Below, piece by piece: positions 781-6,740 of a stretch of DNA of 6,740 bases. Below the pieces are notes generated by a model. The model was not told the DNA's origin and searched no databases. It was given only the letters and a program-made list of their open reading frames with translations. The stretch lies in IMG/VR virus record IMGVR_UViG_2740892212_000008; one strand, 5' to 3'. Within the stretch, counting starts at the first letter, position 1, and each line of letters begins with the position of its first letter. Both the position numbers and the translations under genes were made by a program. Source of the stretch: a virus. Taxonomy: Duplodnaviria; Heunggongvirae; Uroviricota; Caudoviricetes.

Positions 781-796
781 CTGCGGGTGCTTGAGG
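781..796 (+). promoter_or_regulatory. 5' tac-like element of hok mRNA, complementary to the 3' element at 1160-1175
   Basis: The reverse complement of 781-796 (CCTCAAGCACCCGCAG) matches 1160-1175 (CCTCAACGCACCCGCA) with a single-nucleotide bulge. This is the 5'/3' fold-back arrangement typical of hok-family mRNAs. Confidence 0.5.
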
Positions 797-839
797 CTAT
801 CTGTCTCAGGCATGAACACCAAAAGGCAGATAGAGAAAA

Positions 840-906
840 GCCCCAGTTAACATTACGCGTCCGGCAAGACGCTTAACATTAATCTGAGGCCATATCTATG
901 CTCTAC
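840..906 (-). ncRNA. putative Sok-like antisense RNA covering the mok translation-initiation region (boundaries approximate)
   Basis: Expected by analogy with hok/sok loci. A weak minus-strand promoter is present (-35 TTGCCT at plus 941-936, 17-nt spacer, -10 TAACCT at plus 918-913). No clean terminator was found, so this is speculative. Confidence 0.2.
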
Positions 907-1110
907 ACACGTAGGTTAGCCTCTTACGTGCCGAAAGGCAAGGAGAAGCAGGCTATGAAGCAGCAAAAGGCGATGCTTATCGCCCTGATCGTCATCTGTT
1001 TAACCGTCATTGTGACGGCACTGGTAACGAGGAAAGACCTCTGCGAGGTACGACTCCGAACCGGCCAGACGGAGGTCGCTGTCTTCACAGCTTACGAACC
1101 TGAGGAGTAA
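898..1110 (+). CDS. mok-like reading frame: in-frame 19-codon N-terminal extension of hok (70 codons)
   Basis: ATG 898 is in frame with hok and shares its stop, as in chromosomal mokC/hokC and mokB/hokB pairs. GAGG lies 10 nt upstream. Confidence 0.4.
   Translation: MLYTRRLASYVPKGKEKQAMKQQKAMLIALIVICLTVIVTALVTRKDLCEVRLRTGQTEVAVFTAYEPEE
955..1110 (+). CDS. hokD: Hok/Gef family type I toxin, 51 aa, HokD/RelF-like
   Basis: Translation MKQQKAMLIALIVICLTVIVTALVTRKDLCEVRLRTGQTEVAVFTAYEPEE is recognised as Hok/Gef family: one transmembrane segment and the conserved RKDLCEV...TGQTEVAVF core. Stop TAA 1108-1110. Confidence 0.9.
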   Translation: MKQQKAMLIALIVICLTVIVTALVTRKDLCEVRLRTGQTEVAVFTAYEPEE

Positions 1111-2894: not shown

Positions 2895-3446
2895 ATGATA
2901 TATCCGGAAATTACAGGCAAAAGCGGCGAACATTTACGCCTGAACACGCTGGAAGCAGTCTGGATCCAGGGGAAATTACGGATGTGGGGGCGGTGGTCGT
3001 ATATCGGTGGGGGTAAATCCGGAAATATGTTTAACCGGTTACTGGTTTCGAAAAAGCTGACGAAAACAGCAGTTAATGAGGTTTTACGCAGAATGAAGAA
3101 ATCCGGGCTGGAAAAACCGGAACTTGAGGCATTTTTTCGGGATATGACAAGAGGAAAGCAGAAGAGCTGGTTGTCACATTGTACAGACACAGAGGCGTTG
3201 ATTATTGATCGCGTTATCAGTGAGGTGCTTGGGGAATATCCCGGGCTAATCAATGTTCTCCGGCAAAGGTACGAAGGACGGGGAATGAGCAAACTGAACA
3301 TGGCCGAAAGGTTAAATGCAGATCATCCTGATTGGTCGTTGGTTACGTGCAGACGCCGAATTGATCAATGGTTGGGGGTATCTGAATTTATGTTATATGC
3401 CCCCATGCGCATGGCTTTTGTTACAGAGAAAAATGTTGCAAACTGA
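2895..3446 (+). CDS. putative late-gene antiterminator Q
   Basis: Position is diagnostic: directly after rusA and directly before terminator structures and late-region cargo. 183 aa from ATG 2895; the in-frame GTG 2883 overlaps the rusA stop as an alternative start. Family assignment is from context and weak recall only. Confidence 0.6.
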   Translation: MIYPEITGKSGEHLRLNTLEAVWIQGKLRMWGRWSYIGGGKSGNMFNRLLVSKKLTKTAVNEVLRRMKKSGLEKPELEAFFRDMTRGKQKSWLSHCTDTEALIIDRVISEVLGEYPGLINVLRQRYEGRGMSKLNMAERLNADHPDWSLVTCRRRIDQWLGVSEFMLYAPMRMAFVTEKNVAN

Positions 3447-3526
3447 TCAATAAACTGCTTCAATCCGTATAAGCTTCGCAAAGCTGTATCGCGAGGCGAA
3501 ACGCAAGTTTTTTTCGCACAAGGAAG
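3436..3526 (+). promoter_or_regulatory. candidate late promoter (PR'-like) and Q-utilisation region
   Basis: -35-like TTGCAA at 3436-3441 inside the Q 3' end; -10-like hexamers TTCAAT (3459-3464) and TATAAG (3468-3473). Exact promoter not resolved. Region carries nested inverted repeats and a weak hairpin plus T7 at 3496-3514. Confidence 0.3.
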
Positions 3527-3547
3527 CCACCGGAAGGTGGTTTTTTT
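3527..3547 (+). terminator. rho-independent terminator, tR'-like
   Basis: Stem CCACC / GGTGG with GGAA loop, followed by seven T (3541-3547). Confidence 0.6.
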
Positions 3548-3670
3548 GTGTCCGCGATATACAGTAGCGCAATAAATTCGCTGGTGGTTATTAATACCGT
3601 TCTTTCAGCTTGCTGGCTTTTTCGACAAGAGTTATTGGTGTGTCACGTTAACCGGAAAAGGGAAAAAGAC

Positions 3671-4018: not shown

Positions 4019-5068
4019 ATGCTTAATACTGTAAAAATATCCAGTTGTGAGTTAATCAACGCCGACTGCCTGGAATTTATCCGGTCGTTACCCGAAAATT
4101 CTGTTGACCTGATAGTCACGGACCCGCCGTACTTTAAAGTGAAGCCTGAGGGCTGGGATAACCAGTGGAAGGGCGACGATGATTACCTGAAGTGGCTGGA
4201 CCAGTGTCTGGCGCAGTTCTGGCGGGTGCTGAAACCTGCCGGAAGTCTTTACCTGTTCTGTGGTCATCGCCTGGCATCTGATATCGAAATCATGATGCGT
4301 GAACGCTTCAGTGTGCTGAACCATATTATCTGGGCGAAGCCGTCCGGACGCTGGAACGGATGCAACAAGGAAAGCCTGCGGGCGTATTTCCCCGCCACAG
4401 AGCGCATTCTGTTCGCGGAACATTATCAGGGGCCGTATCGCCCGAAAGATGCCGGGTATGAGGCGAAGGGCAGGGAACTGAAACAGCATGTGATGGCCCA
4501 GCTGATTTCTTACTTTCGTGATGCACGCGCGGCCCTGGGGATAACGGCAAAACAGATTGCAGATGCCACAGGAAAGAAAAACATGGTGTCGCACTGGTTC
4601 AGTGCCAGTCAGTGGCAGCTACCGAACGAAAGCGATTATCTGAAATTACAGTCGCTGTTTGCCCGGGTGGCAGAAGAGAAACATCAGCGGGGAGAACTGG
4701 AAAAGTCCCATTACCAACTGGTCAGCACATACAGTGAGCTGAACCGGCAGTATATGGAACTGCTGAGTGAATATAAAAATTTGCGGAGGTATTTCGGTGT
4801 GACGGTGCAGGTGCCGTACACCGATGTGTGGACGTATAAACCGGTGCAGTACTATCCAGGGAAACATCCGTGCGAAAAACCGGCAGAAATGCTGCAGCAG
4901 ATAATCAGCGCAAGTAGTCGTCCTGGTGATCTGGTTGCGGATTTTTTCATGGGGTCGGGTTCAACGGTAAAAGCGGCGATGGCACTGGGGCGTCGTGCGA
5001 TTGGTGTTGAGCTGGAGACCGGACGTTTTGAGCAGACAGTCAGGGAAGTTCAGGATTTAATCGTTTGA
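4019..5068 (+). CDS. DNA methyltransferase, beta-class amino-MTase (probably N6-adenine), orphan
   Basis: 349 aa with catalytic motif IV DPPY near the N-terminus (SVDLIVTDPPYF) and SAM-binding motif I near the C-terminus (DLVADFFMGSGST). This order is the beta-class arrangement. No restriction-endonuclease-like ORF is adjacent. Confidence 0.9.
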   Translation: MLNTVKISSCELINADCLEFIRSLPENSVDLIVTDPPYFKVKPEGWDNQWKGDDDYLKWLDQCLAQFWRVLKPAGSLYLFCGHRLASDIEIMMRERFSVLNHIIWAKPSGRWNGCNKESLRAYFPATERILFAEHYQGPYRPKDAGYEAKGRELKQHVMAQLISYFRDARAALGITAKQIADATGKKNMVSHWFSASQWQLPNESDYLKLQSLFARVAEEKHQRGELEKSHYQLVSTYSELNRQYMELLSEYKNLRRYFGVTVQVPYTDVWTYKPVQYYPGKHPCEKPAEMLQQIISASSRPGDLVADFFMGSGSTVKAAMALGRRAIGVELETGRFEQTVREVQDLIV

Positions 5069-5117
5069 AACGGATGAGATTGCAGTATTAATTCCGTAAC
5101 GTTATTATTCTGCGCGC

Positions 5118-5193
5118 GGCCCTTTAGCTCAGTGGTGAGAGCGAGCGACTCATAATCGCCAGGTCGCTGGTTCAAATCCAGCAAGGGCCACCA
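5118..5193 (+). tRNA. ileZ: tRNA-Ile2 (anticodon CAU, lysidine type), phage-encoded
   Basis: 76 nt with canonical cloverleaf: acceptor GGCCCUU/AAGGGCC, anticodon loop CUCAUAA, T-loop UUCAAAU, 3' ACCA. Very close to E. coli tRNA-Ile2. Confidence 0.85.
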
Positions 5194-5200
5194 TCACATA

Positions 5201-5277
5201 CCGCCATTATCTCATCAGGAAAGAGCGCCAGCCTTCGAAGCTGGTTGCGCGGAGTTCGGGTCCCCGAAGGCGGTCCA
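5201..5277 (+). tRNA. tRNA-Arg-like (anticodon UCG), possibly degenerate (argN position)
   Basis: Anticodon stem-loop CCAGC-CUUCGAA-GCUGG and a D-loop with A14 and GG are present. Acceptor stem has one mismatch, T-stem one mismatch, and T-loop is UUCGGGU (G where A58 is expected). Confidence 0.45.
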
Positions 5278-5290
5278 TTATCTGTATCCT

Positions 5291-5367
5291 GCGTTGTTAG
5301 CTCAGCCGGACAGAGCAATTGCCTTCTAAGCAATCGGTCACTGGTTCGAATCCAGTACAACGCGCCA
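5291..5367 (+). tRNA. argO: tRNA-Arg (anticodon UCU), phage-encoded
   Basis: 77 nt with canonical cloverleaf: acceptor GCGUUGU/ACAACGC, anticodon loop CUUCUAA, T-loop UUCGAAU, 3' GCCA. Confidence 0.85.
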
Positions 5368-5381
5368 CACTTATTTTCCCT

Positions 5382-5407
5382 GGCTCGCTTTTGCGGGCCT
5401 TTTTTTT
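5382..5407 (+). terminator. rho-independent terminator after the tRNA cluster
   Basis: Stem GGCTCGC / GCGGGCC (7 bp, one G-U) with TTTT loop, followed by eight T (5400-5407). Confidence 0.7.
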
Positions 5408-5604
5408 AAATGTCTCACAATTCAGACGGTTGACAGTTGTCTGTTTTGCGGGGAGTTTGTTAAAAGAAACTGGCATGGTGAATCCCCCTGTGCGGAGGGG
5501 CAATCAGCGAGTAGGTATATGGGATAATCGTGGATTCAGGTGCTGGTACTGAATTCACCGGGAGGCACCCGGCACCATGCAATGGCACATAGCGCCACTC
5601 TCCA

Positions 5605-5628
5605 GCCCCTCTCCGGAGGGGCTTTCTT
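5605..5628 (+). terminator. terminator-like hairpin, plus strand
   Basis: Stem GCCCCTC / GAGGGGC with TCCG loop, followed by TTTCTTAT. Confidence 0.4.
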
Positions 5629-5634
5629 ATGGAC

Positions 5635-5663
5635 AAAAAAAGCCCGCGCAGGGAGACGCGGGC
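5635..5663 (-). terminator. rho-independent terminator, minus strand
   Basis: Plus-strand A7 (5635-5641) then stem GCCCGCG / CGCGGGC with 8-nt loop. Read on the minus strand this is a GC stem followed by seven U. Confidence 0.5.
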
Positions 5664-5704
5664 GGCAAGGAATAAACAACAAAACGTGAAGTAATATTTC
5701 AGCT
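5635..5704 (-). ncRNA. candidate ~70-nt small RNA, minus strand (hypothetical)
   Basis: Minus-strand promoter-like element: -35 TTGCGC (plus 5739-5734), 18-nt spacer, -10 TATTAT (plus 5715-5710). The transcript would carry a GU-rich stretch (GUUUUGUUGUUUAUUCC) and end at the minus-strand terminator. No coding potential. Confidence 0.2.
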
Positions 5705-5856
5705 GGCGAATAATATCCGACAGTAATCACTCTGCGCAATAGCGCGGCCTTTTTCGTATTGCGGGCTGTTGTCTCTCTTCTGCCATTGTCCTGTAACTTC
5801 CGGACTTCAGCCCGCTCCTCATTTTACTCACAATATTATCCCGGCCGGGAGGATTC

Positions 5857-6740
5857 ATGGCATTTAAACACTATGATGTTGTCAGGGCGGCGTCGCCGTC
5901 AGACCTTGCGGAAAAGCTGACACACAAACTGAAAGAGGGCTGGCAGCCATACGGCGGACCGGTTGCCATTACGCCGTACACACTGATGCAGGCGGTGGCT
6001 ATTGAAGGAGAGCCACAGGTCGGCCCTTCATCTGAGCCGGATTGGTACTACGTCATCGTACTGGCCGGGCAGTCCAATGCCATGGCTTACGGTGAAGGGC
6101 TTCCGCTGCCGGATTCATACGATGCTCCGGATCCGCGCATTAAACAGCTGGCGCGCCGCAGTACAGTGACGCCGGGCGGGGCTGCCTGCAGATATAACGA
6201 TATTATTCCGGCTGACCACTGTCTGCATGATGTGCAGGATATGAGTACGCTGAATCATCCGAGGGCTGACCTGAGCAAAGGGCAGTACGGCTGTGTCGGT
6301 CAGGGTTTACATATTGCCAAAAAACTGCTCCCGTATATCCCGAATAACGCGGGGATCCTGCTGGTACCATGCTGTCGTGGTGGTTCGGCATTTACCCAGG
6401 GCGCGGAGGGGACATTCAGCGAGTCCACGGGGGCCAGTCAGGATTCGGCACGCTGGGGGGTGGGCAAGCCGTTATATCAGGATCTGATTTCCCGCACAAA
6501 AGCGGCATTGCAGAAAAATCCCAAAAACGTTCTGCTGGCCGTCTGCTGGATGCAGGGTGAGTTTGACATGAGCGCCGCCACCCACGCACAGCAACCTGCG
6601 CTGTTTACAGCCATGCTGACACAGTTTCGTGCTGACCTCTCCGTGTTTAACGCGCAGTGCCATGGTGGCAGTGCTGCAGATGTGCCGTGGGTTTGTGGTG
6701 ACACGACGTATTACTGGAAAAATACATACGCTACCCAGTA
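5857..6740 (+). CDS. nanS: prophage sialate O-acetylesterase (NanS-p type) with N-terminal DUF1737-like region; 3' end beyond the window
   Basis: ATG 5857 with GGGAGG 4 nt upstream. Frame is open to the window end (294 codons, verified by hand; absent from the ORF track because it lacks a stop). Contains the SGNH/SASA nucleophile block VIVLAGQSNAMAYG. Confidence 0.85.
   Translation, partial: MAFKHYDVVRAASPSDLAEKLTHKLKEGWQPYGGPVAITPYTLMQAVAIEGEPQVGPSSEPDWYYVIVLAGQSNAMAYGEGLPLPDSYDAPDPRIKQLARRSTVTPGGAACRYNDIIPADHCLHDVQDMSTLNHPRADLSKGQYGCVGQGLHIAKKLLPYIPNNAGILLVPCCRGGSAFTQGAEGTFSESTGASQDSARWGVGKPLYQDLISRTKAALQKNPKNVLLAVCWMQGEFDMSAATHAQQPALFTAMLTQFRADLSVFNAQCHGGSAADVPWVCGDTTYYWKNTYATQ

Follow-up and report, generated by a model that had tools for sequence, protein, structure and literature searches.

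Lambdoid prophages of Escherichia coli O157 Sakai carry convergent pairs of Hfq-binding small RNA (sRNA) genes between the moron site and a conserved downstream open reading frame (ORF), and such pairs have been described in Sp3, Sp4, Sp5, Sp9, Sp10, Sp11, Sp15 and Sp17 (Tree et al., 2014; PMC4104026). Here we compare with these systems a 6,740-nt stretch of Caudoviricetes DNA (IMG/VR record IMGVR_UViG_2740892212_000008; the whole stretch is referred to as the window), and within it the 489-bp gap between the tRNA gene argO and the esterase gene nanS-p (5368-5856). An initial annotation had described this gap as an empty cargo site of the Shiga toxin (stx) type, carrying back-to-back terminators and a candidate leftward sRNA.

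Among the published RNAs of these pairs, AgvB, AsxR and EcOnc03 have primary 5' ends mapped by rapid amplification of cDNA ends (5' RACE; PMC4104026). EcOnc08 and EcOnc21 were detected as Hfq-bound peaks by CRAC (cross-linking followed by cDNA analysis) in 5/5 and 3 datasets, respectively, each with a Northern size of ~271 nt (PMC4104026, Table S2); EcOnc42 is their homologue 3' of stx1B in Sp15 (PMC4104026), and a 2021 review lists EcOnc42/21/08 as Hfq-bound with the target given as 'unknown' (PMC7873438). EcOnc05 likewise has an Hfq-CRAC peak, with a Northern size of ~222 nt (PMC4104026, Table S2). Together with EcOnc04 it belongs to the STnc100 family, of which the copies downstream of stx2B are named EcOnc27/sRNA103. 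Strain EDL933 has eleven STnc100 copies, most with RNA-seq reads and one (STnc100_4) confirmed by Northern blot. The family has been linked to the sRNA PasD of enteropathogenic E. coli (EPEC; Zhu et al., 2026), and PasD, an STnc100 relative, has targets in EPEC found by RNA interaction by ligation and sequencing (RIL-seq).

A probable convergent sRNA pair between argO and nanS-p

The gap is best explained as a conserved convergent sRNA 'dyad' of pathogenic E. coli lambdoid prophages, extending from an empty cargo site to nanS-p and composed of a plus-strand gene of the STnc100/EcOnc05 type and a minus-strand cassette of the EcOnc08 type in the AgvB/AsxR slot, probably Hfq-dependent in trans; we put the probability of this reading at roughly three in four. 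The pair itself is already known: STnc100/EcOnc05 together with EcOnc08/21/42, as reported by Tree et al. (2014; PMC4104026). The elements concerned are as follows.

5444-5634, plus strand: STnc100-family sRNA gene, EcOnc05 of Sakai Sp4, PasD-related family (Rfam RF02076)
5604-5630 (stem 5604-5623), plus strand: terminator ending the STnc100-family RNA, with an 8-bp stem and a weak U-tail UUUCUUAU (terminator scan; Rfam consensus 3' hairpin)
5635-5663 (stem 5663-5642), minus strand: intrinsic terminator of the minus-strand RNA, 8-bp stem, 7 GC pairs, U7 tail (terminator scan)
5635-5704, minus strand: predicted 70-nt EcOnc08-type sRNA AGCUGAAAUAUUACUUCACGUUUUGUUGUUUAUUCCUUGCCGCCCGCGUCUCCCUGCGCGGGCUUUUUUU (promoter alignment, Hfq-CRAC peak, fold)
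5710-5739, minus strand: promoter with -35 TTGCGC (5739-5734), 18-nt spacer and -10 TATTAT (5715-5710) (alignment to AgvB/AsxR promoters)
5715-5800, minus strand: second Hfq-bound region, EcOnc21, whose homologue in Sp15 is EcOnc42; belongs to a ~271-nt transcript (Table S2 mapping)

The plus-strand gene emerged from the Rfam search that the initial annotation had proposed as a check: RF02076 matches 5444-5634 (+) over model positions 1-206 of 206 at 137.7 bits (gathering score 47; E = 3.4e-31). The STnc100-family gene accounts for 191 of the gap's 489 bp, which disposes of the view of the gap as a merely structured spacer, and the plus-strand terminator-like hairpin noted earlier is present but belongs to this RNA as its own terminator, its tail being weak (TTCTTAT). 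The EcOnc05 peak maps to 5505-5613 (+) and the EcOnc05 Northern probe to 5502-5536 with 1 mismatch. Expressed, Hfq-associated RNA of the STnc100 type has been reported for the 99.3% identical Sp4 copy (EcOnc05; PMC4104026) and for EDL933 copies. The 5' end of the gene is uncertain; the published ~222-nt Northern would place the start near 5410. An STnc100 gene in the late region, with a convergent partner or its own terminator upstream of nanS-p, is also found in Sakai Sp4, Sp5 and Sp15, and the arrangement upstream of nanS-p recurs in 53/57 informative IMG/VR nanS-p loci. In position the window copy corresponds to EcOnc27, which lies downstream of stx2B, and to EcOnc05 of Sp4; it comes directly after a tRNA terminator rather than after a toxin gene.

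Promoter and predicted product of the minus-strand gene

The peaks of Table S2 were placed on the window by the relation window x = NC_002695.2 x + 1174301. On this scale the published EcOnc05, EcOnc08 and EcOnc21 peaks all fall within the gap (PMC4104026), supplying the Hfq binding data that had been wanted, with EcOnc08 at 5637-5709 (-) and EcOnc21 at 5715-5800 (-); the leftward Hfq-binding RNA postulated in the initial annotation is thereby confirmed through the Sp4 copy. The window gap and the Sakai Sp4 tRNA-to-ECs1088 region are 99.3% identical over 882 bp, and in a 300-nt minus-strand alignment the window is 100% identical to the Sp4 copy, with 3 differences in the Sp15 copy. The window RNA is the same RNA as EcOnc08/EcOnc21/EcOnc42, with sequence, coordinates, strand and probe target all in agreement. 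It departs from the published description in size (~271 nt), the 70-nt primary transcript proposed here having not been reported previously.

The predicted promoter (TTGCGC, 18 nt, TATTAT) is present and aligns without gaps with that of AgvB, AsxR and EcOnc03. Seven loci were aligned over the minus-strand stretch that begins at the nanS-p start and reaches the STnc100 body: the window, Sp4, Sp15, Sp5 (AsxR), one locus each of the AgvB and EcOnc03 types, and a variant. TTGCGC is invariant in 7/7 aligned loci, the spacer is 18 nt in all, and the window TATTAT occupies the same columns as the TAAAAT of the AsxR, AgvB-type and EcOnc03-type loci; the framework TTGCGC, 18 nt, TAWWAT is common to the window and the AgvB/AsxR family, and the 5' end of the window RNA is deduced from it. 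Every EcOnc08-type variant has TATTAT at a spacing of 18 nt, although the spacer sequence changes. AgvB and AsxR begin with CGAU... at the 6th nucleotide after the -10 box, so the corresponding start here would be A5704 and the RNA would run from 5704 to 5635 (70 nt); it is from this gap-free alignment to the AgvB/AsxR promoters that we infer a transcription start near A5704.

The predicted 70-nt RNA folds at -17.9 kcal/mol (z = -2.85), and its consensus structure comprises a small 5' hairpin, an unpaired U/G-rich stretch CGUUUUGUUGUUUAUUCCUUGCC and the terminator, in agreement with the GU-rich single-stranded stretch expected upstream of the terminator. The general Hfq-sRNA features of a U-tail of at least 6 and an accessible upstream single-stranded region are both present (8-bp stem + U7; CGUUUUGUUGUUUAUUCCUUGCC unpaired). 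The CA-rich stretch remarked upon on the plus strand does exist but is simply the complement of the minus-strand RNA. Comparison of 17 distinct variants of the EcOnc08 type shows a conserved core, CUUCACGUUUUGUUGUUUAUUCCUUGCC, and a conserved terminator (97% of terminator cells paired, with one compensatory G-C to A-U change), together with a 5' end and a terminator loop that vary. A full-text search of 8 million papers with the EcOnc08-type RNA sequence, which contains CUUCACGUUUUGUUGUUUAUUCC, gave no match. Two other identities for the minus-strand RNA were set aside: PasA is located beyond the esterase gene, at a distance of ~2,170 bp from PasD2, and the weak minus-strand Rfam matches to Esr41, OmrA/B, SgrS and others (13-22 bits, far below gathering) were taken to be chance, terminator-driven hits.

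In the mechanism that we propose, the EcOnc05-type STnc100-family gene would lie on the plus strand downstream of the cargo site and end at the 5604-5630 terminator, and on the minus strand the putative sigma-70 promoter at 5739-5710 would start the EcOnc08-type RNA near A5704, with the 5663-5635 terminator ending it. The predicted ~70-nt product, with its 5' hairpin, conserved unpaired U/G-rich stretch and U7 tail, would have the usual layout of an Hfq-dependent base-pairing sRNA. With their own promoters and terminators, both genes would be active in the lysogen without relying on Q-dependent late transcription; these elements and the published Stx-phage model point to expression while late transcription is halted upstream at tR'. 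The minus-strand RNA would most likely act in trans through Hfq by base pairing, and it would also be fully complementary to the antiterminated late transcript. The longer ~271-nt minus-strand transcript exists as well, possibly antisense across the nanS-p start.

Several points weigh against this reading. The -35 box TTGCGC agrees with the consensus at 3/6 positions, which is why a generic scan did not list the promoter. The 70-nt form is based on promoter homology and the extent of the CRAC peak, with a start that is deduced rather than mapped. Covariation support is weak, there being only one compensatory terminator pair and low diversity within the family. The sole Northern (~271 nt) needs a start upstream of the proposed promoter, so that the short form may arise by processing or be a minor species. 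No promoter for the ~271-nt RNA was found near 5905-5950 by scan and inspection, and all target predictions (below) are statistically weak. Finally, the placement of the peaks assumes a zero coordinate offset at Sp4 between the old and current Sakai records, an assumption made because the EcOnc05 probe falls at 5502-5536, the EcOnc08/21/42 probe at 5709-5743, and the EcOnc08 peak ends exactly at the U-tail. For Sp5 and Sp15 the coordinates of the 2014 study (Tree et al.) appear to be shifted relative to the current NC_002695.2 by ~+142 nt and ~+135 nt, respectively. With an apparent offset of 0 at Sp4 against ~+140 nt at Sp5/Sp15, the table of that study needs re-mapping before reuse.

A longer minus-strand transcript and other explanations

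The EcOnc08/21/42 Northern probe AATAATATCCGACAGTAATCACTCTGCGCAATAGC matches window 5709-5743 with 0 mismatches, that is, upstream of the predicted start and over the promoter, and it is therefore blind to a 70-nt RNA starting at 5704. The size of ~70 nt suggested in the initial annotation is thus upheld by the promoter register (5704-5635), as a deduced value, and is not matched by the only published Northern, whose probe could not have seen it. The ~271-nt band proves that a longer minus-strand transcript passes through 5709-5743, in agreement with the EcOnc21 peak. A 271-nt RNA that ends at 5635 would begin near 5905; this position lies within nanS-p, and the RNA would be antisense to the start codon of that gene. 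The sole scan match for a long form, ATGCCA, 17 nt, GATAAT at 5863-5835, would yield ~193 nt. It is possible that there are two nested transcripts, or that a long RNA is processed to the short one; we lean towards a primary transcript of ~70 nt.

The alternative that survives best is a single ~271-nt minus-strand RNA running from in or near the nanS-p 5' end to the 5663-5635 terminator, with TTGCGC/TATTAT unused, acting in cis as antisense to the nanS-p ribosome-binding site and the late transcript, and with the EcOnc08 peak as its Hfq-bound 3' end. The band seen with a probe upstream of the proposed start, the second Hfq peak (EcOnc21, 5715-5800) and the projected start near 5905, which would let the RNA cover the nanS-p start codon at 5857, all speak for it. 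We nevertheless judge it unlikely: the promoter framework is common to three sRNAs with mapped primary 5' ends, TATTAT and its 18-nt spacing stay invariant while the spacer sequence differs among variants, and the EcOnc08 peak (5637-5709) lies within 5 nt of the predicted short RNA and was seen in 5/5 datasets versus 3 for EcOnc21. In addition, the absence of a promoter-like site near 5905-5950 tells against a long RNA as the only product, and the 273-nt sequence shows no unusual degree of structure (z = -0.70).

It is still less probable that the hairpins are insulators only, with the back-to-back terminators blocking stray transcription at the cargo site and the RNAs arising as by-products that have no regulatory role. 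Three to four terminators do lie within 380 bp, no target has been published for EcOnc08/21/42 (PMC7873438), and our own target predictions are not significant. Against this, no upstream gene on the minus strand has an mRNA that would need the minus-strand terminator, nanS-p as well as the lysis genes being encoded on the plus strand. Both RNAs cross-link to Hfq in vivo (PMC4104026), the unpaired core that separates the 5' hairpin from the terminator is as well conserved as the terminator itself, the same-slot siblings AgvB and AsxR have demonstrated trans functions (PMC4104026), and the STnc100 relative PasD has RIL-seq targets in EPEC.

That the minus-strand RNA is itself a copy of AgvB or AsxR, sponging GcvB or FnrS, is highly improbable, in spite of the shared position, orientation, promoter framework and convergent STnc100-type partner. 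The initial annotation had left this identity open, and at the level of sequence it is refuted. The Rfam models AgvB (RF02702) and AsxR (RF02703) gave no match even at E <= 10 on 5300-5950 (651 nt), the AgvB-family 3' core GTATCTCATGC..TTGCCCGAACCC had 0 matches with up to 3 mismatches, and the conserved ~42-nt 3' region of AgvB/AsxR (GUAUCUCAUGC..UUGCCCGAACCCAYUCGGGC) is absent at <=3 mismatches. RNA-body identity to the family is 40-48%, and the window RNA has a GU-rich stretch, not the CA-rich GcvB-target mimic of AgvB. The stretch running from the nanS-p start as far as the -35 box is 95.8% identical in the window and the AsxR locus, against 50% for the spacer with the -10 box and 40% for the RNA body, a sharp fall that places a mosaic boundary at the promoter. 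The EcOnc08-type gene is, to judge from these comparisons, a distinct cassette in the AgvB/AsxR/EcOnc03 slot and not a member of that sequence family. It resembles AgvB, AsxR and EcOnc03 in lying in the same slot (cargo site to nanS-p) and orientation, antisense to late transcription, in being convergent with an STnc100-type RNA under the same promoter framework, and in a similar overall plan, that of a short RNA whose 5' part varies, whose 3' part is conserved and which has a strong terminator. It differs in its unrelated body, its length (~70 nt versus 51-60 nt), its terminator and its exposed GU-rich stretch, as opposed to their CA-rich or AU-rich ones.

A small protein encoded by the gap, such as the 43-aa minus-strand ORF (5858-5727) that faces the nanS-p start or the pseudogene fragment annotated in O55:H7 RM12579, can be discarded almost entirely, since the ORFs of 32-67 aa that the gap does hold include none of the five searched against Pfam that matched at E <= 1, and the 43-aa ORF is not conserved in related loci, being truncated or devoid of an ATG there (6 to 107 aa; ATG missing in 27/90 distinct upstream regions; an in-frame stop at codon 18 in an EcOnc03-type locus) and lacking a preceding Shine-Dalgarno sequence, as befits the earlier statement that no credible ORF is present. 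The fragment in question is a partial 'hypothetical protein' pseudogene called by the Prokaryotic Genome Annotation Pipeline (PGAP) in NC_017656 (RM12579) at L001 6096-6221, equivalent to window 5463-5588 on the minus strand, that is, on the wrong strand over the STnc100 gene; this annotation counts in favour of coding. The same PGAP annotation lists no ncRNA feature within the gap of the RM12579 copy.

The cargo insertion point

The following elements mark the upstream end of the module.

5382-5407 (stem 5382-5399), plus strand: intrinsic terminator after argO, 7-bp stem, 6 GC pairs, T8 tail (terminator scan)
5406-5410, no strand: cargo (moron/stx) insertion point, empty here (alignment to Sakai Sp5)

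Window 5000-5405 aligns to positions 1148-1554 of the Sp5 locus (L004), ending 53 nt before stx2A, and window 5411-5501 aligns to L004 2890-2980, starting 42 nt after stx2B. The Sp5 stx2A/stx2B genes (L004 1608-2848) sit exactly between these two blocks. Homology to Sp5 continues through the argO terminator and ends at 5405; with alignment breaks at 5405 and 5411, the cargo point is therefore 5406-5410, directly after that terminator. In Sp15 (stx1), homology to the window restarts at 5551 and then continues at 98% into nanS-p. On these alignments, 5411-5856 is a conserved module that is also present downstream of the toxin genes in Stx phages. The description of the gap as an empty stx site is accordingly right as to place, the Sp5 stx2AB genes falling between 5405 and 5411, but the empty site is 5406-5410 only and the gap is not empty.

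Terminators and hairpins of the gap

A terminator scan of 5000-6000 returned 5 terminator-like sites against 1.2 +/- 1.4 in shuffles and recovered the three terminators of the initial annotation at their places. The spacing of 7 nt given there for the convergent hairpins holds if the tails are counted; the stems themselves are separated by 18 nt (5624-5641). The argO-proximal terminator region (5369-5411, plus strand) has a weak match to STnc100 model positions 165-206 (15.1 bits, E = 0.76), and this likeness to an STnc100 3' end may be the remnant of another STnc100-type terminator, or chance. A further hairpin, absent from the initial annotation, was found nearer nanS-p.

5732-5755 (stem 5732-5747), plus strand: terminator-like hairpin CTGCGCAATAGCGCGG followed by CCTTTTT (terminator scan)

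The 5732-5747 stem holds the -35 box of the minus-strand promoter, and the hairpin is kept in AgvB/AsxR loci; it might couple plus-strand readthrough to the activity of that promoter, or end some plus-strand RNA. A long imperfect hairpin at 5760-5815 (both strands), GCGGGCTG...CAGCCCGC, separates the sRNA promoter from the ribosome-binding site of nanS-p. It is retained in AgvB-type loci with both arms changed (GTGGGCTGTAG...CTACAGCCCA) and lies within the EcOnc21 Hfq peak.

Occurrence of the gap and census of the slot

The 489-bp gap is 100% identical in O55:H7 RM12579 and an O111:H2 strain, and at least 80% of it is present in 975/5426 complete E. coli genomes; the promoter together with the EcOnc08-type RNA occurs in 991/5426 such genomes at 1447 places. 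In the 12/12 records listed for this complete-genome search, no annotated feature lies under the match to promoter and RNA.

Scanning IMG/VR with the two conserved flanks of the slot (TTGCGCAG ... TGCCGGGTGCCTCCCGG) yielded at least 120 loci, and among the matches listed 64 are of the EcOnc08 type, 48 of the AgvB/AsxR/EcOnc03 type and 8 have other bodies. A separate IMG/VR sample anchored on the nanS-p protein comprised 57 informative loci: 16/57 are EcOnc08-type (15 of these with an 'empty' gap of 488-490 bp), 17 belong to the AgvB family, in 20 STnc100 occurs by itself and the terminator is a different one, and the remaining 4 are unrelated. The core pattern had 0 matches in one-genome-per-species contigs. 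Outside E. coli the slot pattern was found only in an Escherichia sp. and a probable contaminant, with nothing credible outside Escherichia. The contaminant (L206; NZ_JPLE01000080.1, 'Xanthomonas pisi DSM 18956', an 888-bp contig) carries an AsxR cassette identical to Sakai Sp5 over 110 nt; the assembly is almost certainly contaminated with E. coli/Stx-phage DNA. Six IMG/VR loci (L155, L172, L176, L127, L117 and L196) have the same slot (TTGCGCAG to TGCCGGGTGCCTCCCGG), the same promoter framework and a strong terminator. Their bodies resemble neither AgvB nor EcOnc08 (e.g. GCGUUAAUUAAUUGUUCAUAUUGCUUUUCUUCUUGCCAACCGCUCUUCCCGGGGCGGCUUUUUUUU); they are sRNA-like and appear uncharacterised.

Target predictions and resemblances

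Shuffled controls did as well as the predicted duplexes of the minus-strand RNA with AsxR, EcOnc03, GcvB and the STnc100 partner, and duplexes with AgvB variants gave p ~0.02-0.08. Duplexes with the dppA and oppA 5' regions were also no better than shuffles (GcvB R1 control, p ~0.02-0.03). The longest perfect dppA complement is 10 nt (AAACAACAAA) at -31, beside the GcvB site, a length matched by 129/2000 shuffles (6.5%). With GcvB the window RNA has the 7-mers UGUUGUU and UUGUUGU of seed region R1 in common and no further homology, and the likeness is one of resemblance only.

The predicted RNA also has an exact 11-mer, UUACUUCACGU at 5684-5694 (-), in common with nt 40-50 of E. coli Spot 42 (L208), as well as GCUGAA(A)UAUU and GCCGCCC. 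The 11-mer identity was reached by 6/5000 shuffles in a comparison chosen post hoc. Mimicry of Spot 42 was not adopted, the 11-mer touching only the first few nucleotides of region III (placed by GUA and GGA mutations, PMC5991649) and the comparison being post hoc.

A doubtful extension of the preferred reading is that the EcOnc08 type constitutes a third functionally distinct cassette in the AgvB/AsxR slot, giving a ~70-nt primary transcript whose conserved U/G-rich stretch UUUUGUUGUUUAUU (GcvB R1-like) would target C/A-rich sites, whether those of mRNAs (dppA, for example) or those of the CA-rich anti-sRNA AgvB from co-resident prophages. The support is compositional only (the GcvB R1 7-mers, the 10-nt dppA complement and the AgvB duplex). 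If the idea is true, prophages that swap cassettes would push the host GcvB/amino-acid-uptake network in opposite directions.

Genomic setting

The window represents the late-regulatory part of a lambdoid prophage, annotated here through the identical copy in O55:H7 RM12579. Its principal genes outside the gap are listed below.

All 5' of the tRNA cluster: DUF968 gene, rusA, Q-like gene (DUF1133) and DNA methyltransferase (annotation of the RM12579 copy)
5118-5367, plus strand: ileZ-argN-argO tRNA cluster, that is tRNA-Met(cat)/ileZ, tRNA-Arg(tcg) and tRNA-Arg(tct) (ARAGORN, Rfam tRNA matches)
5857-6740, plus strand: 5' part of nanS-p, a SASA-family sialate O-acetylesterase (annotation of identical copies)

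The flanks of the gap are those first assigned to it, with the ARAGORN tRNAs at 5118-5367 (annotated as tRNA-Ile/Arg/Arg in identical copies) and the esterase ORF from 5857, whose protein has 596 relatives in IMG/VR. Upstream, a hok/sok-type toxin-antitoxin module occupies 785-1110, where Rfam sok (RF01794) scores 117.1 bits at 785-960 (+) and a Hok-like ORF of 70 aa (898-1110) overlaps the match; 96 N (masked or unresolved) at 1241-1336 separate this module from the DUF968 gene. The Q-like gene ends at 3446 and is followed by a plus-strand hairpin CCACCGGAAGGTGG (3527-3540) and T8, although the terminator scan gave only a minus-strand reading of this hairpin region (noted window 3447-3550). 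The interval 3447-3550 is where lambdoid phages place pR'/tR', the place at which Stx phages make the short Hfq-binding RNA StxS (PMC7547250).

Significance

What is added to the published pair is modest: the exact cargo point, the promoter shared with AgvB/AsxR in front of a distinct cassette, the census of the slot, and the reason why the published probe missed the short form. The shared, mapped promoter provides a testable gene model, with a start at ~5704 and a length of 70 nt. For annotation, 'empty' prophage gaps between tRNA genes and nanS-p hold two sRNA genes, neither of which PGAP marks in the RM12579 copy. The EcOnc08-type cassette is at least as common as its sibling cassettes. In Stx phages the slot adjoins the Shiga toxin genes, and the siblings AgvB and AsxR rewire the sRNA networks of the host and influence its fitness in the bovine gut.

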